A stretch of DNA of 64,000 nucleotides. Origin: Candidatus Hydrothermota bacterium. Its GTDB lineage: Bacteria; Hydrothermota; Hydrothermia; B15-G9; DRBW01. The first letter of the stretch is position 1, and each line of letters begins with the position of its first letter. The stretch lies in the NCBI GenBank assembly GCA_021158525.1, contig JAGGUL010000031.1:6955-70954 (forward strand). Direction: 5' to 3'. The position numbers were made by a program, and so were the translations under genes. The notes beneath the pieces were generated by a model. The model searched no databases and was not told the DNA's origin. It saw only the letters and a program-made list of their open reading frames with translations. Shown here piece by piece: positions 1,271-41,330 of the stretch.

Positions 1271-3262
1271 TTAACCTTCCGATTCCTCGTCAAGAAAAAC
1301 CGTGAAATAGGCCCTCTTCGCGAGGGGAGTGAAGGGCTTTCCGCCATTCTCATAAAACTTGGTGAAAAACTCCACATATTGAAGACGAAGGCTGTGAACG
1401 AAACCCCCGAGAGCATTGACGGCGATGCTGAAAATGTGCCCGAAGACGAAAACCAGCCCGGCCAGAACATATCCAATCACCGGGAAACCCATAACGAGGC
1501 CCGCGGTGATGTTGACGGCCATCGCTATCCCCGCCGTGACCATGCCGAGGGCCATCAGCCTTACATAAGACAAAAGGTCACCAACAAAACCGATTCCCCC
1601 ATACAGGTTGTAAAGCCCTTTGAGAATCCTTATAACGGGGTTCCTGCTCTTCCCGCCGCTGAAAAAGATGATCAGAAAAACACCAGCGAAGATAAGGAGA
1701 GTCGCCATGGCCTGAAGAGGCCCTCCGAATAGGAAGCTGCCTCCTTTGCCGGCCTTCACATTGGCGAAAACCAGCAACCCGGCCGAGAGCAGGACGATAA
1801 ACCATGCGAGCTCATTGGAAATACCGCCCAGGGCATCGCCGAACCTGAGCTTGTTATAAAATCCCACGAGAAGGCCGAAGAGAAGCTGAATGTAGCCCAG
1901 CGCCAGGGAAAGGTAGAAGAACTTCATGGGTTCTTTCATCGGATCGAAAAGCATAAGGGAGTTCCTGAAGTCCTTCAAAAAGGGCAAAGGAAGCCTCTCT
2001 GGCAGATCGCCGAACCAGCTCCCGGTCATGGCTCCCGCGAGCACGGTGAAGAAAGCGCCGGCCACCAGGATCCACATGAAGTCTTTTCCTCCCCTCATTT
2101 TCTTCATGAGGATGAATCCCAGGATCAGGAGAACTATGCCGTAGGCAGCGTCGGTGAGACAGAGACCAAAGAAAAAGGCAAAGAAAGGAGCGAGGAGCGG
2201 CGTGGGATCCACCTCGGCGTAATTGGGGAGGCCATAAAGCTCGGTGAGCATCTCGAAGGGCCTGAACACCTTCTTGTTTGCGAGATCGACGGGGGGAACC
2301 TCACCGGGCTGGGGTGCCGAACGAGTTATGTAAACCGTTTCAAAGGAAGAAGCCAATTTCTCAAGCCTGTCCCAGTCGCTTCTCCTCACCCAGCCCTTTA
2401 TGACGACCGCTTCCTCCGTGGCCGCAGCACGGTTCTCAGCTCTGTATTTCTCGAGGACCCCGGAATAATAATCATATAAAACCAGCAATTTGTAGGCATC
2501 TTTAGCCAGTTCTCTCGCTTTCTCGGCTATCTCGCTTCTCCGCTGAGCTATCTCCGAGAGCTTCTCCCTCAGGCCCTCAATGATCTCGGCCGGCCTGCCA
2601 GAAAGCCCCTCGAAATCGGCTTCTTCAAATTCAAGAGCCAGGAGCTCCTTACGGACTTCCTCCTCGTCCTTTATCCTGAAAACGAGAAGGAGATAAGACT
2701 TTTTGGCATCCCTGTTGACCTCGACATACTCCAGGGGAAGCTCCCGAAGCGAGTCAAGCTTTTCTATGGGAATTGTCCCGGCGACGACGACGGCCTCATG
2801 ACTGCAGCCGAGTTCTGCCACGTCCATGTCCAGCTTGCTCCAGGGATCAAGCTGGTCGAGCCGATTGAGTAAAGAATTCTCCTCGACTTTGAGGGCTGAC
2901 AGCTCCCTCTCCATCCCCTCCGTGGTATCGAGAAACTCGTCCATCGGAAAAGAGCTGACGATGTCCATGTATTCCTTTCTCGTGAGCTCTATCTTTCCAC
3001 CGAAAATGCCAGCGAGGAAACCTCTCTTGGGGATATAGGGCTTCAGAAAACCGTGGCTCCTTTTAAGCCTGGAGAGGAGGGCCTCGAGCTCACCCTCATT
3101 CCTCTCCTCCGGGCTGAGAAGCTCCCTGACTTCTTCGATCGAGGTGTCAGACCGGAGATCCGAAATGTGAACGATGGAGGCCTTCTGGAGCTCCTCCAGA
3201 AAGGAATCTTTCTCGCTTTTGTGCAGCAGAATTACGACCTGATCAACCCGGGCGACGGCCAT
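1271..3262 (-). CDS. A/V-type ATP synthase subunit I (a-subunit, 116-kDa family)
   Basis: 663 aa with a soluble coiled-coil N-terminal half and a polytopic C-terminal half. The conserved Arg-containing helix (VHSLRLQYVEFFTKFY) is typical of subunit I. Confidence 0.75.
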   Translation of the reverse strand: MAVARVDQVVILLHKSEKDSFLEELQKASIVHISDLRSDTSIEEVRELLSPEERNEGELEALLSRLKRSHGFLKPYIPKRGFLAGIFGGKIELTRKEYMDIVSSFPMDEFLDTTEGMERELSALKVEENSLLNRLDQLDPWSKLDMDVAELGCSHEAVVVAGTIPIEKLDSLRELPLEYVEVNRDAKKSYLLLVFRIKDEEEVRKELLALEFEEADFEGLSGRPAEIIEGLREKLSEIAQRRSEIAEKARELAKDAYKLLVLYDYYSGVLEKYRAENRAAATEEAVVIKGWVRRSDWDRLEKLASSFETVYITRSAPQPGEVPPVDLANKKVFRPFEMLTELYGLPNYAEVDPTPLLAPFFAFFFGLCLTDAAYGIVLLILGFILMKKMRGGKDFMWILVAGAFFTVLAGAMTGSWFGDLPERLPLPFLKDFRNSLMLFDPMKEPMKFFYLSLALGYIQLLFGLLVGFYNKLRFGDALGGISNELAWFIVLLSAGLLVFANVKAGKGGSFLFGGPLQAMATLLIFAGVFLIIFFSGGKSRNPVIRILKGLYNLYGGIGFVGDLLSYVRLMALGMVTAGIAMAVNITAGLVMGFPVIGYVLAGLVFVFGHIFSIAVNALGGFVHSLRLQYVEFFTKFYENGGKPFTPLAKRAYFTVFLDEESEG

Positions 3263-3573
3263 TATCCGATAATTTCCTTCAGCACCCTCTCCACAGCTTT
3301 TCCTATTCTCTCACGAGCTCTCGCCTCAAGTTCCTTTACCTCATCCGCTTTCTGTGCCCTCAACTTCTCGAGTTCTTTCTCAGCCTCTTTGCGGGCCTTT
3401 TCTATCGCCTCCTGGATGATCGCCTTCTTCTCCTCCTCAGCCTTCTCAGCTATTTCCCTGGCCTTTGACCTTGCCTCGGCGAGAATCTCCTCGGCCTTCG
3501 CCCTGCTCTCATCTACGATCCTCTTTGCCTCTTCTTCGGCCTTTTTGATATCCTTTATCAATTCTACAGGCAT
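3262..3573 (-). CDS. A/V-type ATP synthase small stator subunit (H/G-like)
   Basis: 103 aa, entirely a charged coiled coil (AEEEAKRIVDESRAKAEEILAEARSKAREIAEKAEEEKK). It is the first gene of the operon and its stop/start overlaps the subunit I gene. Confidence 0.5.
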   Translation of the reverse strand: MPVELIKDIKKAEEEAKRIVDESRAKAEEILAEARSKAREIAEKAEEEKKAIIQEAIEKARKEAEKELEKLRAQKADEVKELEARARERIGKAVERVLKEIIG

Positions 3574-3619
3574 GAAAACCTCCGCATGGGCTTTATTTTA
3601 AATAAAAGCCGAAGGGGGG

Positions 3620-4522
3620 TCAAGAAGCCTGGTGAACCACAAGGACATCGGCCCTCGACGCTCTCAGAACTTTCTCCGTTATGCTACCCATGAACAGCCT
3701 CTTGAGGCCCGATTGCCCTCTTTTCCCCATTATTACCAGGTCTGCCCTTTCCGAAGCCTCGGCTATGTTCTTGTCGGCATCGCCCTTTTTGACCTCAGGA
3801 ACGGCCCCAGACAGGCCGAGATCGGCGAGCCAGTCGGTCAGCCTCTTCTCTATCTCTGCCCTCAGCTTTTCCTCGCTCCTGTCGAGCTCGATTTTGCTCT
3901 CCGAGGAAAGGGCGAGTTTGGCGAAATCCGGCATTACATAAAGGGCCCTGACCTTCGACTGAAGCTTATCGGCGAAATAAGCTGCCCATAGGGCCGCTTT
4001 CTTTGAGTTCTCCGAAAAATCGACAGCGAGGAGTATCTCCTGAAATCCATCGGCTCTGTCCTCGAGCTTCTTGACGACCAGCACCGGAAAATCGGCGCCC
4101 CTTATTATTCCCTCAGAAATCCCGCCCAGCGAGAGAAACTTGGGGAGATCCGAATATCCGTGCGAGCCTATAATTCCCATGTCAGCTCCGATCCGCTCTG
4201 CATAGGAAAGGTACCCTTCCTTGGGATTTCCGGTCAAGACGAAGACATCCACTTCCCTGACGCCGTCGGCCTTCAGTTTCTCCGCGAGCTTGAGCAGGGA
4301 CTCCTCGGCCTGTTTCTCGAGTTCTTCCTCGATTGAGAATGAAGTCCAGCCCGATATGATGCCTTCAGGATCGAGGGGAAGCTCCAGGGGCGGGACGATA
4401 TGGACAAGGTGCACCGCAGAGTCAAAAGCCTTCCCCAGCTGGGAGGCCACATGAACCAAAGGGTCGGTGAAGGTAGAAAAATCGATACCCACGAGGATCT
4501 TTTTGACATTAATTTCTGTCAT
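3620..4522 (-). CDS. Universal stress protein, tandem UspA domains
   Basis: 300 aa with two UspA-like halves. Each ends in an ATP-binding-type motif (VLVVKK..., GSHGYSDLPKFLSLGGISEGIIRGADFPVLVV and VIMGKRGQSGLKRLFMGSITEKVLRASRADVLVV). Confidence 0.7.
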   Translation of the reverse strand: MTEINVKKILVGIDFSTFTDPLVHVASQLGKAFDSAVHLVHIVPPLELPLDPEGIISGWTSFSIEEELEKQAEESLLKLAEKLKADGVREVDVFVLTGNPKEGYLSYAERIGADMGIIGSHGYSDLPKFLSLGGISEGIIRGADFPVLVVKKLEDRADGFQEILLAVDFSENSKKAALWAAYFADKLQSKVRALYVMPDFAKLALSSESKIELDRSEEKLRAEIEKRLTDWLADLGLSGAVPEVKKGDADKNIAEASERADLVIMGKRGQSGLKRLFMGSITEKVLRASRADVLVVHQAS

Positions 4523-35265: not shown

Positions 35266-35407
35266 GAGTAAAATCCTTGCTGTGGGACGTGTGATAATAA
35301 AAGCTCCTATTTTGTAATTAATATAACTCTTTATGCAAGTTTTGGCAACCGTGTGCGCTTTTTCGCTTGACTACTGCACGGATTTTCAGTATATAGAAGG
35401 CCTGACC

Positions 35408-36700
35408 ATGAAATTCTTCATCCGCACATTCGGCTGTCAGATGAACGTATACGATTCGGAGTTGATATCAGAACTCCTCCTCAAGGAAGGCCTCAAAGAA
35501 GCCCCCTCCCCTGGAGAAGCCGATGTAATTCTGGTCAACACCTGCACGGTCAGGCAGAAAGCCGAGGAAAGGGGTCACGAGTACGCCAGATTCTGGAAAA
35601 AGAGGGGGAAAAAGGTCGTAATGCTCGGATGCCTTGCCCAACAGGAAAAGGAAAGGCTCATGGATGCCGCCGATTTGGTGATTGGAACAAGAAGTTACAC
35701 GCTCTTGCCGAAAACTATCAGGGAGCTATTGGGAAAAAGGAGAAAGGCCGTCCTGACAGAGGACAGCGGGCTGATCGACCTCACCGAAATTTCTCTCTCG
35801 AGATCGCCCAGGCTTAGCGGATTTTCGGAGTTCGTCACCATAATGCGGGGATGCGACAATTTCTGCAGCTATTGCATAGTCCCCTATGTCAGGGGAAGGG
35901 AGACAAGCCGGCCGCCGGAGATGATCATCTCCGAGATCAAAAACCTCGAATCCAGAGGAATTATAGAGGTGACCCTCCTGGGGCAGAATGTGAATTCCTA
36001 CTTCTACAAAGGTACCGATTTTGCGGAATTGCTCGATATGATAGACAGGAATACCTCGCTTTACAGGCTGCGTTTCACGACCTCACATCCGAGAGATATG
36101 TCATACAAAACAGTAAAAACCATTATGAATTCGAGGAGAATAACCCACTGGTTCCACCTCCCTCTCCAGGCCGGCTCTACCAGGGTCCTTCGCCTCATGA
36201 GGCGGGGCTACACCAAGGAAGAATACCTCGATCTCGTCGAGACTATCAGAAAGCTTGACCCGGAAGCCTCGATAACGACCGACATCATGGTCGGGTTCCC
36301 CGGCGAAGAGGAGGTCGATTTTCTCGAGACACTGGACGTCGTTGAAAAAGCCGGCTTTGACCACGCCTATACCTTCGTCTTCACAAAGAGGCCTCACACT
36401 GCTGCTTTTTACCTAAAAGAAACGCTATCTCCTGGCGAAAAGGGCAAAAGGCTGAGAAGGCTCATCGACTGCCTGAATAAAACCATATGGCATAGGCGAC
36501 AGAGAATGCTCGGCAGGGTCTACGAATTGCTAATAGAGGGCCCCTCAAGAAAGAATAAAAGGCTGTCCAAAGGCAGGACAGACGGAAACATCACGGTCGT
36601 GGTAACCAGAGAACTGAAACCGGGAATGCGAGTTCTGGCAAAAGTCAGGGAGATAAAGGGACTAACCCCGATTGCCGACGTCGTTGAAATGCTCGAATAA
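35408..36700 (+). CDS. miaB: tRNA methylthiotransferase, MiaB-like (radical SAM, MTTase family)
   Basis: An N-terminal MTTase domain starts at MKFFIRTFGCQMNVYDSE. The radical-SAM motif is CDNFCSYC, and there is a C-terminal TRAM-like domain. The ORF as called begins 25 codons earlier, which seems unlikely. Confidence 0.65.
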   Translation: MKFFIRTFGCQMNVYDSELISELLLKEGLKEAPSPGEADVILVNTCTVRQKAEERGHEYARFWKKRGKKVVMLGCLAQQEKERLMDAADLVIGTRSYTLLPKTIRELLGKRRKAVLTEDSGLIDLTEISLSRSPRLSGFSEFVTIMRGCDNFCSYCIVPYVRGRETSRPPEMIISEIKNLESRGIIEVTLLGQNVNSYFYKGTDFAELLDMIDRNTSLYRLRFTTSHPRDMSYKTVKTIMNSRRITHWFHLPLQAGSTRVLRLMRRGYTKEEYLDLVETIRKLDPEASITTDIMVGFPGEEEVDFLETLDVVEKAGFDHAYTFVFTKRPHTAAFYLKETLSPGEKGKRLRRLIDCLNKTIWHRRQRMLGRVYELLIEGPSRKNKRLSKGRTDGNITVVVTRELKPGMRVLAKVREIKGLTPIADVVEMLE

Positions 36701-36841
36701 AAGGATCTATCCGGGCAATTCATAAATCCCGAATCACCATCCAGATTGTCAAAATTGGCACAAGGGGATCCGCACGCCCCATCGGGGTACCTCAAGAAGG
36801 TTGACAAAATCGTTGAACACATCGATAATATTTACGCTCGC

Positions 36842-36915
36842 GCGCCCGTAGCTCAATTGGACAGAGCGGCGGACTACGAATCCGTAGGCTGGGGGTTCGA
36901 GTCCCTCCGGGCGCG
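36842..36915 (+). tRNA. tRNA-Arg (anticodon ACG)
   Basis: I folded the cloverleaf by hand. The acceptor is GCGCCCG/CGGGCGC, the D-arm is GCTC..GAGC, the anticodon arm is GCGGA-CTACGAA-TCCGT, and the T-arm is GGGGG-TTCGAGT-CCCTC. The discriminator is G and CCA is not encoded. Confidence 0.8.
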
Positions 36916-36925
36916 CTTTTTGCGT

Positions 36926-37387
36926 ATGACTGACGATGAGAAATTCATGAAAGAGGCCCTGGTAGAGGCCCAGAAAGCCCTGGAGGAGGGTGAGGTCCCT
37001 GTTGGTGCCGTTGTGGTCCACGAGGGCAGGATCATAGGAAGGGGACACAACATGACCGAAACCCTCAAGGACCCCACGGCCCACGCCGAGATAATAGCCA
37101 TCACCGCGTCAGCGGCATACCTCAAAAACTGGAGGCTCGAGGGCGCGAAGCTCTACGTCACCCTGGAGCCCTGCATCATGTGTGCGGGAGCCTCTGTGCT
37201 GGCTCGCCTCGAGGAGATCGTTTTCGCGCTGCCGGATCCCAAGTTCGGCGGTTGCGTTTCTCTGTATAAAATACCCGAGGATGCCCGCCTCAATCACAGA
37301 GTGCGCGTCCGACAGGGGCCTCTGTCCGAGGAAGTTCAAAAACTAATGAAATCATTTTTTCAAAAACTAAGGGCAAAAAAATCTTGA
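36926..37387 (+). CDS. tadA: tRNA-specific adenosine(34) deaminase
   Basis: CDA-fold zinc motifs HAE (TAHAEIIAI) and PCxxC (LEPCIMCAGA). The start is MTDDEKFMKEALVEAQKA, 10 nt after the tRNA. The longer ORF as called reads through the tRNA. Confidence 0.85.
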   Translation: MTDDEKFMKEALVEAQKALEEGEVPVGAVVVHEGRIIGRGHNMTETLKDPTAHAEIIAITASAAYLKNWRLEGAKLYVTLEPCIMCAGASVLARLEEIVFALPDPKFGGCVSLYKIPEDARLNHRVRVRQGPLSEEVQKLMKSFFQKLRAKKS

Positions 37388-37436: not shown

Positions 37437-38759
37437 ATGATAAGCTTTAAAAAAGCAATGTTAAGTGTTGCAGTATGCGCTCTCCTGGTCTCCCCTCTGT
37501 TCAGTCTGAACTGGGCTTTCTATGCTCCCTCCGGAAGAGACGGAGCCGCATTGATCTATGACGCTATGGACAATCAAATGGTGCTGTTCGGCGGAAGAGG
37601 TTATGTGGATGCCCATATGAACGATGTCTGGCTGTTAAACACAAATAATGCCTACCCGATGTGGACCAGGTTAGATTTAGACGATCCTCCTCCAGCGCGG
37701 AGATTTCCTGTCGCTATATATAGAAGTACCACTGACGAAATGGTGATATACGGCGGCAGAGATTATATTCAATTTTTCGATGACCTTTGGGTGCTGAAAT
37801 TAAGCCCTGGCAGCGAAGAGTGGGACCATTTAACCCCCTCGGGTGCAAGGCCGGACCCAAAATCTGAAGCATCGGCAATATACGATCCTGTAAACGATAG
37901 ACTCATATTGTTCGGCGGTTTCAATGGATCTGTCCACCAGAATGACCTGTGGGCTTTTGACTTCAACAGTGAGACCTGGGAACAAATATCCCCCTCAGGC
38001 TCGATACCTCCGGCGAGGAGAGGAGCAATGGCTGTTCATGATCCCAACGGCCATCGATTAATTCTCTTCGGCGGGTTAGGCGATGTGGATAATTTCAACG
38101 ATGTCTGGGTATTCGATCTGAACAGCGAGGAATGGACTCAGCTCAGCCCGTCTGGAACGATTCCACCCGGCAGGGGTGGAGGAGCAGCGTTCTTCGATTC
38201 GGACAATAACCGCCTGATAATCCACGGGGGTTGGGCTTACGATGGCGCATGGATTTACTATTATAACGACCTCTGGGCTCTCGATATGGAAAGCCTGACC
38301 TGGACCGAATTATCACCCGTGGGTCCCGCGCCCGAACCCAGGAGAAATATGGCCTATGCGTATGACACCCAGAATCACCGCCTGATAGTCTTCGGAGGAA
38401 ATCAGTACCCGAATTATTATTTCGGCGATCTATATGCTGTAGAAGATTGGGGTCCCACTGCTAAGAAAGAGTTTGACGTTCCCGAAACACGCGCTTCTGC
38501 CGTAAAGATTTACCCTAATCCTGGCCGTGGGCCCTTTAAGATAGAATTCTCCCTTGTGAAACCGGGACCGGTCACTATCAGTGTCATAGACCTGCAGGGC
38601 AGAACTCTGGACCAAATGCACATAAAGAACGCCACTGCCGGCCTGAACGTGTTCACATGGGACCCGAAAGCAGGTACAGAATTACCAGCTGGAACGTATT
38701 TCTTCCGTCTCGTAACGCCCTACAGGACAACCGTCGTCCCCTTCGAAGCCCTCAGGTGA
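37437..38759 (+). CDS. Secreted Kelch-repeat beta-propeller protein with a FlgD-Ig/T9SS-like C-terminal domain
   Basis: Signal peptide, then about six Kelch-like blades (repeated LILFGG...NDLWAFD, NDVWVFD, NDLWALD). The C-terminal 80 aa (IYPNPGRGPFKIEFSL...ISVIDLQGRTL...GTYFFRL) are the sorting-domain pattern. Confidence 0.65.
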   Translation: MISFKKAMLSVAVCALLVSPLFSLNWAFYAPSGRDGAALIYDAMDNQMVLFGGRGYVDAHMNDVWLLNTNNAYPMWTRLDLDDPPPARRFPVAIYRSTTDEMVIYGGRDYIQFFDDLWVLKLSPGSEEWDHLTPSGARPDPKSEASAIYDPVNDRLILFGGFNGSVHQNDLWAFDFNSETWEQISPSGSIPPARRGAMAVHDPNGHRLILFGGLGDVDNFNDVWVFDLNSEEWTQLSPSGTIPPGRGGGAAFFDSDNNRLIIHGGWAYDGAWIYYYNDLWALDMESLTWTELSPVGPAPEPRRNMAYAYDTQNHRLIVFGGNQYPNYYFGDLYAVEDWGPTAKKEFDVPETRASAVKIYPNPGRGPFKIEFSLVKPGPVTISVIDLQGRTLDQMHIKNATAGLNVFTWDPKAGTELPAGTYFFRLVTPYRTTVVPFEALR

Positions 38760-38865
38760 AGTAATCCGAAATTCTTGCGGGGCCCTTCCTTACGGAAGGG
38801 CCCCTTTTTAATTTCTCGCGCGACCTTGAAAATCTCGTCATAGAAAGGTATAATATTTCAGTGGG

Positions 38866-39693
38866 GTGGGGAAAGGTATTACTATGGTTTTTCATCCGGA
38901 CGATCTGGATTTTGATCTGTTCGAAGCAAAATACGCAGCCCTGGATATAGAAACCACCGGCGTATCTTTCAGGAACGATAGGATATGCGAGATAGCTATC
39001 GTAACCTGGCGGGTCGGTGAGAAAACGGAGGAATTTTCGAGTCTCGTCAACCCGGGGTTATCTATATCCGAGATGTCCTATTCTGTCCATGGAATCACAA
39101 ATTCCATGGTGACCCATTCCCCCACTTTTCGCGAGATAGCCGACAAGGTCTACGAAATGCTGAAGGATTCTGTCATCATAGGGCACAACGTCCTCTCGGT
39201 GGACCTCAGCTTTCTCAACAAGGAACTCCGGGAAGCCGGAAAAAAACCTCTTTATAACTTCTTCATAGACACCTATCTCATGTCCAAAAAAATAGTACCG
39301 GGCCTGAAAAGGCGTTCTCTAAAGTGCCTCGCCCAGGCCCTTGACATCAAGGTAGATACGCTTCACCGGGCCCTTCCCGACGCCCAGCTGGTCATGAAGA
39401 TCTGGCGGAAGATACTCGACAGATTTCGCCGCGAAGGAATCACCAGGCTGAAGGATATGAGAGAGATGGGGCTTCTCGACGGGAAGGTCAAAAAGAAGGC
39501 AAAGGACATCATGGAACTGGCGAGAATTCACGGATTGGTGAGAATAGTCTATCTTTCGCCTTTCAGCGGAAGGACCATGAGAAACATAGAACCCCTCAGC
39601 GTGAGGGGCAACAAGCTGGACGCTTATTGCCACCTCAGGGAAGATTTCAGAACATTTGAATTAAACCGAATAATCGATTACAGGATCCCTTGA
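38866..39693 (+). CDS. DnaQ-like (DEDDh) 3'-5' exonuclease fused to a C-terminal WYL-like domain
   Basis: Exo I is LDIETTG, Exo II is IIGHNVLSVDLSFL and Exo III is HRALPDAQL. The C-terminus (LVRIVYLSPFSGRTMRNIEPLSVRGNKLDAYCHLREDFRTFELNRI) follows the WYL-domain consensus (R.iEP...AYC..R.FRL.RI). Confidence 0.65.
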   Translation: MGKGITMVFHPDDLDFDLFEAKYAALDIETTGVSFRNDRICEIAIVTWRVGEKTEEFSSLVNPGLSISEMSYSVHGITNSMVTHSPTFREIADKVYEMLKDSVIIGHNVLSVDLSFLNKELREAGKKPLYNFFIDTYLMSKKIVPGLKRRSLKCLAQALDIKVDTLHRALPDAQLVMKIWRKILDRFRREGITRLKDMREMGLLDGKVKKKAKDIMELARIHGLVRIVYLSPFSGRTMRNIEPLSVRGNKLDAYCHLREDFRTFELNRIIDYRIP

Positions 39694-40095
39694 TCAGAAT
39701 TCTTCTTCCCCGTAATCGAAGTCCTCTTCGTAATCGGGTTCGAGCTCAAGCTCGAGGACTTCCGCCTCAATGGCGGAAAGAGCTTCACCCGCATCCCTGA
39801 ACGCATTCTCGAGGTCCTCGGGTGACATCTCCCCATCCCGGGCTGACTCGACGATCTCGTCGATCTCTATCCTAAGCTTCTGTAGCTTTTTAGCTATCTC
39901 ATCGATCTTGTCCTTGGTCAGGGCATCGGTCAAACCGAGCCTGAGATCGTCCAGCCTGGAAAACAGCTCAGCGATAGCTTCCTGCCAACCTTCGGTGAAA
40001 TCCGTCACACTCTCCCACGTTGCGAGGATTTCCTCATCGCTCAGCCCTGACATATCAAACACCTCCTTTGATGAATAGGGATTTAATATACGCAC
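39694..40095 (-). CDS. Hypothetical acidic protein
   Basis: 133 aa. It is strongly acidic, with a helical C-terminus ending EEDFDYGEEEF. I recognise no family. Confidence 0.35.
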   Translation of the reverse strand: MRILNPYSSKEVFDMSGLSDEEILATWESVTDFTEGWQEAIAELFSRLDDLRLGLTDALTKDKIDEIAKKLQKLRIEIDEIVESARDGEMSPEDLENAFRDAGEALSAIEAEVLELELEPDYEEDFDYGEEEF

Positions 40096-40156
40096 ATCCC
40101 CATATTAAGTCAATATGGTATTTTTCAGCCTCCTGGTCCCTAAGGGGATAGACTTG

Positions 40157-40609
40157 ATGAGAAGGCAAGGGAAATGTTATAATGAGCGCATGGAAAAGCC
40201 TTTTCTGGACGAAAAGGGCAAGGAAGAGGTTAAAAAATACCTCAAGCCCATTCCCGACAGCCATCCCGACAGGGAATACCTTGTCGAACTCGTAACCGAC
40301 GAACTCACAGCTATATGCCCTTTTTACGGAAATCCCGACTTTTACAGGCTGAGGATTCTCTATGTCCCCGACAAGACGGTGGTGGAACTCAAGTCATTGA
40401 AGTTCTACATAACGGCGTTCAGGGACTACAGGACGACCCACGAGAACCTGCTCAACACCATCTTCGACCAGCTACAGGAACTGATGAAACCGCGCTATAT
40501 GCTGATTGAGCTCGACGTTGCGGTAAGAGGGGGCATAAAAACCAGGATACTCAGGGAATCGGGGGAAAGGCCCCGGATCTTTGAGGTAGAAACAAAGCTC
40601 AGGATTTAA
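40157..40609 (+). CDS. queF: NADPH-dependent 7-cyano-7-deazaguanine (preQ0) reductase
   Basis: QueF type-I motifs include the Cys-containing CPFYGNPDF and the (SLKFYITAFRDYRTTHE) E/SLK-Y..F...H motif. I placed the start at MRRQGK, which has an upstream GGGGA Shine-Dalgarno. Confidence 0.8.
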   Translation: MRRQGKCYNERMEKPFLDEKGKEEVKKYLKPIPDSHPDREYLVELVTDELTAICPFYGNPDFYRLRILYVPDKTVVELKSLKFYITAFRDYRTTHENLLNTIFDQLQELMKPRYMLIELDVAVRGGIKTRILRESGERPRIFEVETKLRI

Positions 40610-40610
40610 A

Positions 40611-41330
40611 ATGATCCCGATAGTCTGGATTTACTGGGTGGTCTCTCTAACGTTGGTCACACTTGCGAGCGCCTACATAGTGAAGAACCACGAAGATGTG
40701 GGCTTCGCGGCCCTCACTGCTTTTTACTCCCTCTATCTGGCCGCCTCACAGATACTCGCCTCCAGAATTATCTATTTCGACATCGGGATCTACAAATTCA
40801 CGGCCCCCTCAGCTGTGTTCATATATCCCTTTATAGCCCAGGCCATAGACATGATAAACGAGGCGTACGGCAGGAAAAAGGCCCAGCTCTCGATTCTCAT
40901 AGCTTTTCTCACCCAGGTCCTCCTGATCACCTTCATACTCATGGTGAACACGTTAAAACCTGCCCCTTTCTTCAAATTTGAAGCGGCCTGGAAAAGTCTC
41001 TTCGGGCTCAGCATAAGGATAACGGCGGCAAGCTGGCTTTCTTTCCTCATCTGTCAGAACGTGGATGCCCACATTTTCTCGTTTCTGAAGAGGAAATACG
41101 AAAAACAGGTGATCCTGAGAAGCGTAACTTCGGATATCCTTGACCTCACTCTGGACAGCGTCATCTTTGTGACCCTTGCCTTTTACGGCGTCATGCCGCT
41201 ACTGCCCCTGATAATCGGCCAGATAGTGAGCAAGAACATCATAGGATTTATCGATACCCCCTGGTTCCTTCTCTATAAGAAGATCATAGGCAGGGGGTAC
41301 GTATTCACCGAAGCCCCGGCCCCACAATAG
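40611..41330 (+). CDS. yhhQ: Queuosine-precursor transporter (YhhQ/DUF165, Vut family)
   Basis: 239 aa, polytopic, with the YhhQ pattern (VFIYPFIAQAIDMINEAYGRKKA). It lies immediately downstream of queF. Confidence 0.7.
   Translation: MIPIVWIYWVVSLTLVTLASAYIVKNHEDVGFAALTAFYSLYLAASQILASRIIYFDIGIYKFTAPSAVFIYPFIAQAIDMINEAYGRKKAQLSILIAFLTQVLLITFILMVNTLKPAPFFKFEAAWKSLFGLSIRITAASWLSFLICQNVDAHIFSFLKRKYEKQVILRSVTSDILDLTLDSVIFVTLAFYGVMPLLPLIIGQIVSKNIIGFIDTPWFLLYKKIIGRGYVFTEAPAPQ

Follow-up and report, generated by a model that had tools for sequence, protein, structure and literature searches.

A DEDDh exonuclease fused to a WYL domain in a Hydrothermota bacterium: a divergent member of a catalogued family, with a possible substrate-holding tail

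Introduction

What does a WYL domain do when it is attached to a nuclease? The question is raised by a gene at 38866..39693 in a 64,000-nucleotide stretch of DNA from Candidatus Hydrothermota bacterium (GenBank assembly GCA_021158525.1, contig JAGGUL010000031.1, positions 6,955 to 70,954, forward strand), which we call the window and whose own numbering is used here. A sequence-only reading of the window had described the gene product as a DEDDh 3'-5' exonuclease fused to a WYL-like sensor domain, and had taken it for a ligand-gated defence or DNA-damage effector with little precedent. We find that the protein belongs to a large, catalogued and uncharacterised RNase_T + WYL family, within which it sits on a divergent WOR-3 branch. 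As to function, our tentative preference, held at a little under an even chance, is for a housekeeping 3'→5' single-strand exonuclease, probably acting on single-stranded DNA (ssDNA), whose WYL tail holds the substrate.

Domain architecture of the fusion protein

The open reading frame (ORF) at 38866..39693 on the + strand is real and translates without interruption from the GTG start that the sequence-only reading had chosen; residue numbers throughout follow that GTG numbering. The coding sequence is given below from the ATG start argued for in a later section, and the domain boundaries combine profile matches with AlphaFold2 (AF2) models.

38884..39693, + strand: DEDDh-WYL coding sequence, ATG start, 269 amino acids plus stop
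38938..39402, + strand: DEDDh (DnaQ / PolC-exo-like) 3'-5' exonuclease domain, residues 25-179, placed by Pfam, NCBIfam, PDB sequence matches and Foldseek
39403..39492, + strand: helical linker, residues 180-209, in which the last exonuclease helix ends and which also holds a short helix (195-200) and the basic run KVKKK (AF2)
39493..39690, + strand: WYL module, residues 210-275, an N-terminal helix and a five-stranded Sm-like beta-barrel, without a WCX extension

The exonuclease motifs quoted in the sequence-only reading are all present in the translated ORF, with DIETTG at residues 27-32, GHNVLSVD at 106-113 and HRALPDAQL at 167-175, and the C-terminal sequence it quoted, RIVYLSPFSGRTMRNIEPLSVRGNKLDAYCHLREDFRTFELNRI, is found as well. 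Across Exo I, Exo II and Exo III the catalytic residues are D27, E29, D113, H167 and D172; N108 is also present. Pfam RNase_T (PF00929) matches residues 25-179 at 114.2 bits against a cut-off of 24 (E 1.2e-32), and the NCBIfam dnaq domain model TIGR00573 scores 100.4 bits (cut-off 71.5). Sequence matches in the PDB are to the PolC exonuclease domain, the DinG N-terminal exonuclease and epsilon (E 1e-12 to 1e-19). Foldseek retrieved the DnaQ domain 8h2f (E 1.6e-14, template modelling score on the target 0.86), and the RNase H-like α/β fold is found in the model. Judged by these sequence features, the domain is a DEDDh superfamily member with intact catalytic residues and predicted 3'-5' activity. 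Its nearest relatives by sequence and by fold, namely the PolC exonuclease domain, the ssDNA-bound DinG N-terminal exonuclease and the DnaQ epsilon subunit, act on DNA; they operate as part of a polymerase or helicase, or attach to the alpha subunit by a C-terminal peptide, whereas the partner of the window domain is a WYL barrel.

The Pfam WYL profile (PF13280) matches residues 224-273 at 26.9 bits against a cut-off of 21.8 (E 4.7e-6). Both domains thus exceed their curated cut-offs, and the C-terminus does score as WYL, as the sequence-only reading had anticipated. The literal W-Y-L triad reads N-K-L in the window protein. The C-terminal region nevertheless carries a genuine WYL domain, beyond what the marginal profile score conveys. 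We accept the assignment because the core is invariant in 16 homologues, because 103 of 104 relatives match the profile and because the AF2 models are confident. In the 16 close homologues, D27, E29, N108, D113, H167 and D172 are invariant together with the WYL core, and linker residue G191 is invariant among homologues. The wider set of 104 relatives (26-81% identity) matches RNase_T in every case, with a best WYL E-value of 7.4e-21; the catalytic D, E and H are invariant there, and the remaining D positions show a conservation of at least 90%. For the full-length protein, the AF2 model reaches a predicted local distance difference test score (pLDDT) of 87 and a predicted template modelling score (pTM) of 0.85, and residues 186-275 modelled alone reach a pLDDT of 84 and fold as a helix followed by a five-stranded barrel. 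In structure comparison of this C-terminal model, Hfq and other Sm proteins come later, at ~6-7.

The chain terminates 2 residues past the last WYL strand, and the ferredoxin-like WCX extension is not found C-terminal of the WYL module. Pfam and NCBIfam scans returned no helix-turn-helix (HTH) family, the N-terminus being the exonuclease domain. The fusion of an exonuclease straight to a WYL domain without an HTH, as the sequence-only reading had described it, is therefore borne out by Pfam, NCBIfam and structure comparison, with WCX absent too. The two halves of the protein differ in charge; the linker and WYL tail have an isoelectric point of 10.2, against 6.5 for the catalytic domain.

Residues of the putative nucleic-acid site

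We mapped residues by profile alignment to PDB sequences and counted conservation in the 104 relatives. The putative nucleic-acid site of the WYL module, read from this alignment, comprises S231, R239, R258, R262 and R268; together with C255, these positions correspond to ligand residues of CapW and Pif1.

Rl CapW S144 (Ec S158) to S231: mutation abolishes CapW ssDNA binding; Ser in 52/104, nearly invariant in the WOR-3 clade
Rl CapW R184 (Ec R200) to R268: mutation abolishes CapW ssDNA binding; Arg in 87/104
DdPif1 R464 to R239: modelled ssDNA-backbone contact in DdPif1; Arg in 103/104
DdPif1 R491 to R258: modelled ssDNA-backbone contact in DdPif1; Arg in 89/104
DdPif1 R495 to R262: modelled ssDNA-backbone contact in DdPif1; Arg in 103/104
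DdPif1 R501 to R268: modelled ssDNA-backbone contact in DdPif1; Arg in 87/104
DdPif1 R498 to E265: modelled ssDNA-backbone contact in DdPif1; Arg in 71/104, Glu in the window protein

Four of the five arginines of the DdPif1 WYL domain modelled in contact with ssDNA therefore align to arginines of the window protein, each conserved in 87-103 of the 104 relatives. Conservation is highest at Y229, R239, C255, R262 and F264 (103-104/104). Cys255, encoded at nt 39628..39630 within 'AYCHLR', is invariant in 104/104 family members, and the AYCH motif is held in common with CapW and BrxR.

Outside the family, the nearest WYL relatives are found in Pif1 C-termini and among stand-alone WYL proteins rather than in HTH regulators; the word-indexed search with a C-terminus-only profile returned mostly gene fragments and is informative for these nearest outsiders alone. 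Bacterial Pif1 proteins (TePif1; DdPif1 and SsPif1; PDB 8BNV, 8BNS) are likewise nucleic-acid enzymes with a single C-terminal WYL domain and neither HTH nor WCX, and the Pif1 WYL aligns with that of the window protein, including the four arginines above. In TePif1 the WYL domain serves as an accessory that binds ssDNA, and DNA binding is weaker when the domain is lost. Pif1 differs in that the enzyme partner is a superfamily 1B helicase and not an exonuclease, with a different strand polarity at the enzyme; E-values to Pif1 chains are weak (0.06-0.14), so the relationship is one of domains only.

Size, spread and precedent of the family

Searched exhaustively by HMMER with a family profile, 1.84 billion cluster representatives yielded 811 matches at E <= 1e-30. 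Most of the best 150 of these 811 are 250-310 amino acids long and align end to end, and by a family-specific hidden Markov model 123 of 167 sequences (the best 150 plus close matches of an earlier search) carry the WYL module. The fusion is thus present in at least roughly 100 clusters at 50% identity, which is a lower bound. DnaQ + GIY-YIG proteins dominated the matches when the full family profile was used in a word-indexed search. Carriers, known from metagenome-assembled genomes (MAGs), fall in candidate division WOR-3 and Hydrothermota, where the close clade lies, and in Myxococcota, NC10, Anaerolineae and Chloroflexaceae. Family members share the domain order, a length of ~260-300 amino acids, end-to-end colinearity and the same catalytic and WYL-core residues. 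In public records the relatives are called 'exonuclease domain-containing protein' or 'DNA polymerase III epsilon subunit family exonuclease'.

The sequence-only reading's view that the fusion has little precedent does not survive this search, since the same ~270-residue architecture recurs in most of the best 150 representatives. A fusion of WYL with a '3'->5' exoRNase' is, moreover, already among the architectures listed in the founding WYL paper (Makarova et al. 2014, PMC4012209). Müller 2019 lists no RNase_T class in its supplement, and architectures with <100 sequences were left out of the figure in that study.

Within the family the WOR-3 / Hydrothermota clade is a divergent branch, at 26-36% identity to most other members. 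It is set apart from the wider family by Lys (K250) and Glu (E265) at WYL-core positions otherwise occupied by Tyr and Arg, respectively, and by a weaker Pfam WYL score (27 bits). The window itself is 96-97% identical, gene for gene, to contig DRBW01000190 of the WOR-3 MAG HyVt-237. Relatives of ~200 amino acids without a WYL domain interleave with WYL-bearing ones in the exonuclease-domain tree; some of these may be truncated gene calls. Four proteins close to the WOR-3 clade in that tree (P0026, P0031, P0033 and P0089; 241-268 amino acids, the same length) have kept the C-terminal module and lost the signature Cys and Arg of WYL, which suggests that loss of the canonical ligand site need not entail loss of the barrel.

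Start codon and transcription unit

While the ORF stands as the sequence-only reading had it, the GTG start at 38866 is probably six codons too early. We place the start at ATG 38884, where the terminator, the promoter-like site, the purine-rich stretch and the N-termini of homologues all fit; every homologue begins with MIF or MVF at the position of this ATG.

38779..38804, + strand: intrinsic terminator of the upstream Kelch gene, an 11-bp G+C-rich stem followed by a T-run; strong
38826..38854, + strand: sigma-70-type promoter-like site TTGAAA-17-TATAAT, 11/12 matches, near-consensus
38868..38876, + strand: Shine-Dalgarno-like purine-rich stretch GGGGAAAGG, 7 nt before ATG 38884, a candidate ribosome-binding signal by sequence

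The terminator sets the exonuclease gene apart from upstream transcription. Five promoter-like sites were found against 1.5 expected, and the one at 38826..38854 is the best of them; it is probably the gene's own promoter. The DEDDh-WYL gene accordingly appears, from these signals, to form its own transcription unit in this genome. An operon with tadA and the Kelch gene was considered and rejected for this genome because the terminator and the promoter-like site lie between. The GC content and base composition of the gene are ordinary.

Role of the WYL domain

The reading that we tentatively favour treats the protein as a chromosomal, separately transcribed enzyme of the DnaQ / PolC-exo type to which a WYL domain may have been added as a module that binds single-stranded nucleic acid. 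The basic face of the barrel (S231, R239, R258, R262, R268) would grip the single strand a few nucleotides to the 5' side of the end under digestion, while the 3' end would enter the two-metal site of the DEDDh domain. Such a grip would raise affinity, and probably processivity or substrate selectivity too, for the ssDNA tails and gaps of repair and recombination. The same design logic may be seen in the WYL domain of Thermotoga elfii Pif1 and in the SH3-like domain of E. coli exonuclease I. The ssDNA substrate, the holding rather than gating role of the WYL domain and the part in repair or recombination are each what we infer. They agree with the DNA-acting relatives of the catalytic domain, with the conserved residues that align to ssDNA contacts in CapW and Pif1, with the basic tail, with the closeness to Pif1-type WYL domains, with the housekeeping and variable neighbourhoods sampled and with what is described for WYL domains elsewhere. 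Most established WYL ligands are ssDNA, as reported for DriD and PafBC, and for CapW binding was seen with poly-T, poly-C and poly-G ssDNA but not with poly-U RNA.

Several observations pull the other way. The WOR-3 clade carries K250 and E265 where the wider family has Tyr and Arg, and the position of CapW R168 is Asp252 in the window protein. WYL ligands are not uniform; WYL1 is described as tied to Cas13d RNA cleavage, and one WYL regulator is reported to sense c-di-GMP (PMC11880434). In the literature on WYL fused to DnaQ, DEDD or exonuclease domains, we found no experimental study of the fusion. Lastly, tadA and other tRNA-related genes are recurrent neighbours, which would fit an RNA substrate.

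One alternative keeps the gating idea of the sequence-only reading. The WYL domain would be an allosteric sensor, and the nuclease would be inhibited or weak until a signal binds, giving sensor and effector in one polypeptide; candidate signals are free ssDNA derived from damage, an RNA fragment or a nucleotide second messenger. The very strong conservation of the WYL ligand-site residues and of Cys255 (103-104/104) would fit such a switch, the pTM of 0.85 suggests, for the model, a fixed two-domain arrangement and not beads on a string, and the c-di-GMP regulator gives the second-messenger version a parallel. The known allosteric cases, though, signal through a dimeric HTH-WYL-WCX scaffold of which both HTH and WCX are missing here. 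The commonest WYL ligand, ssDNA, is also the likely substrate, and simple substrate binding would explain the same conservation. The WYL-less ~200-residue relatives interleaved in the domain tree, some of which may be truncated gene calls, count against it, as does the lack of a signal-producing enzyme, such as a cyclase, among the conserved neighbours of the loci examined. We regard gating as unlikely, and its specific form, a self-contained damage sensor-effector whose exonuclease is switched on allosterically by ssDNA or a small nucleotide on the WYL barrel, as rather improbable. Were gating correct, this would be the first WYL domain to gate a catalytic domain directly instead of a transcription factor; in the damage-sensing form, Cys255 and the clade-specific K250 and E265 would tune the ligand. 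Because most WYL domains that have been solved or assayed bind ssDNA, the likely substrate here, holding is at least as likely as gating. An RNase T-like 3'-5' exoribonuclease that trims the 3' ends of tRNA or small RNA, with the Sm-like barrel binding RNA, is likewise doubtful. The Sm-like fold, the 'exoRNase' label given to the fusion in the 2014 paper (PMC4012209), and the tadA and tRNA neighbours speak for it. On the other hand, DNA enzymes account for all of the best sequence and profile matches (PolC exonuclease, DinG exonuclease, epsilon and Cho-like DEDD proteins), RNase T was not recovered by sequence search against the PDB, and the WYL domain of CapW binds ssDNA and not ssRNA. The neighbourhood argument loses force because the terminator and the gene's own promoter-like site separate it from tadA and the Kelch gene, because the tadA synteny is missing in the other WOR-3 subclade, and because one tRNA or translation gene among 12-14 neighbours is, by our estimate, expected by chance.

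Two further readings depend on genomic context, which we compared by tblastn of the window's genes against 20 related loci, 11 of them also with Pfam-annotated gene lists. That the protein is the lineage's replicative proofreading subunit, a Pol III epsilon with a WYL domain in place of the polymerase-binding C-terminal tail, might be read from the public names of relatives, from the score over cut-off of the NCBIfam dnaq domain model and from a dnaX-ybaB-recR cluster ~6 kb downstream in the window and in loci L005 and L084. Yet the epsilon equivalog models score far under their cut-offs (TIGR01406 92.3 vs 222.7; PRK05711 83.6 vs 196; PRK06310 103 vs 236), no dnaE or polC gene lies beside the gene in any locus examined, and the dnaX cluster is on the opposite strand, six genes away. 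No clamp-binding or alpha-binding tail is evident, since the C-terminus is a folded WYL barrel. An epsilon subunit proper was rejected on the equivalog scores and the lack of replicase linkage, and a proofreading role is very unlikely; the dnaE or polC context that the sequence-only reading had named as pointing to an ordinary proofreading paralogue is not what we see, the dnaX cluster being ~6 kb off and confined to the closest relatives. A stand-alone anti-phage or anti-plasmid effector fares no better. CRISPR, CBASS and BREX contexts are known for WYL domains as well as for DEDDh nucleases, and the generic DEDDh and WYL models of PADLOC match, as does the N-terminal part of the candidate PDC-S48. 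These matches are at domain level only, PDC-S48 being covered over its N-terminal 172/411 positions. The neighbourhoods examined (20 loci compared, 11 of them with Pfam lists) hold no cas, CBASS, BREX, restriction-modification or toxin genes, the gene keeps its core-genome position across WOR-3 relatives, its GC content is not atypical, and no record among 50,697 phage records covers >=80% of the protein. On PADLOC, context, the phage search and composition together we reject the defence reading, and with it the earlier suggestion of a defence effector; the likelihood we leave it is slight.

If the substrate-holding reading is right, the family represents a widespread, unstudied way to give a small DnaQ-type nuclease a grip on ssDNA. 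Many bacteria lack exonuclease I, and RNase_T + WYL proteins would then serve some of them. It would also be the second case, after Pif1, of a WYL domain as a substrate-binding accessory and not a regulatory sensor, which matters for annotation because a WYL domain is often taken as a sign of defence regulation. The fusion is neither unprecedented nor defence-linked; it defines no new category of system and is weak as a defence lead. It is a tidy, tractable test case for the function of a WYL domain joined to an enzyme. With its 269 amino acids the protein is small; it is also probably thermostable and confidently modelled, and hence convenient for deciding between holding and gating.

Comparison with other known systems

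The HTH-WYL-WCX factors PafBC, DriD, CapW and BrxR have transcription as their output and a dimeric scaffold that carries the signal, whereas the window protein is catalytic and has neither the HTH nor the WCX domain. E. coli exonuclease I (SbcB) differs in length (475 amino acids), in a third helical domain, absent from the window protein, and in having an SH3-like domain that is not a WYL domain. Outside the exonuclease core there is no detectable sequence similarity, exonuclease I is not among the phmmer matches in the PDB, and the resemblance is at fold level and to the first two domains only; the likeness is an analogy of design, not family membership. As the defining features of each are lacking, the window protein is not an HTH-WYL-WCX regulator, an epsilon subunit proper, an exonuclease I or a PADLOC system.

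Genomic neighbourhood

The neighbours named in the sequence-only reading, a secreted-type Kelch protein on one side and an acidic protein followed by queF on the other, are those that we see.

35333..36700: miaB, preceding tRNA-Arg(ACG) and tadA
36842..36916, + strand: tRNA-Arg(ACG), directly upstream of tadA
36920..37387, + strand: tadA
37437..38759, + strand: Kelch beta-propeller protein with a signal-like segment at the N-terminus and a FlgD_ig / Por_Secre_tail region at the C-terminus
39694..40095, - strand: very acidic coiled-coil-like protein, 133 amino acids, ending on the base next to the exonuclease stop; convergent, no spacer
40115..41330, + strand: queF (preQ0 reductase), then a Vut_1 / YhhQ-type transporter; pair kept in L005 and L084
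45545..48048, - strand: recR-ybaB-dnaX cluster, ~6 kb downstream with six genes between; only in the closest relatives L005, L084 and L085

The sampled neighbourhoods are housekeeping throughout and variable in content, with, among others, miaB, tadA, queF and the Vut_1 transporter, shikimate genes, jag-yidC-yidD, lpxB, selA, efp and glycosyltransferases. A weak regularity is that in five WOR-3 / Hydrothermota loci (44-81% identity) tadA is found upstream of the gene, with differing inserts in between; the other WOR-3 subclade lacks this arrangement. The TadA deaminase edits A34 of tRNA-Arg(ACG). The mechanically called ORF 36746..37387 runs across the tRNA gene, which makes the N-terminal extension of this ORF spurious. 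The dnaX cluster is absent from more distant relatives.

The acidic coiled-coil gene, which matches no family over cut-off and occurs only in L005, L084 and L085, was rejected as a partner, being on the opposite strand and conserved only in these closest relatives. The queF and Vut_1 pair likely serves in making and salvaging queuosine precursors. For the Kelch protein, the Por_Secre_tail match (a type IX secretion sorting signal) scores near or below the cut-off.

A second weak regularity is that proteins with tetratricopeptide repeats (TPR) adjoin the DEDDh-WYL gene in five loci of different lineages.

L004 5669..7570: TPR neighbour
L014 ~2800..4490: TPR neighbour
L087 6162..7004: TPR neighbour
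L088 5008..7023: TPR neighbour
L090 4820..5548: TPR neighbour

The Myxococcota TPR protein has no detectable homology to the WOR-3 ones. In related loci the slot of the Kelch gene is taken by TPR or thioesterase genes. The stop and start codons of the TPR and DEDDh-WYL genes overlap in L087 and L088, and in L004 and L086 a 4HBT thioesterase gene overlaps the start of the DEDDh-WYL gene.
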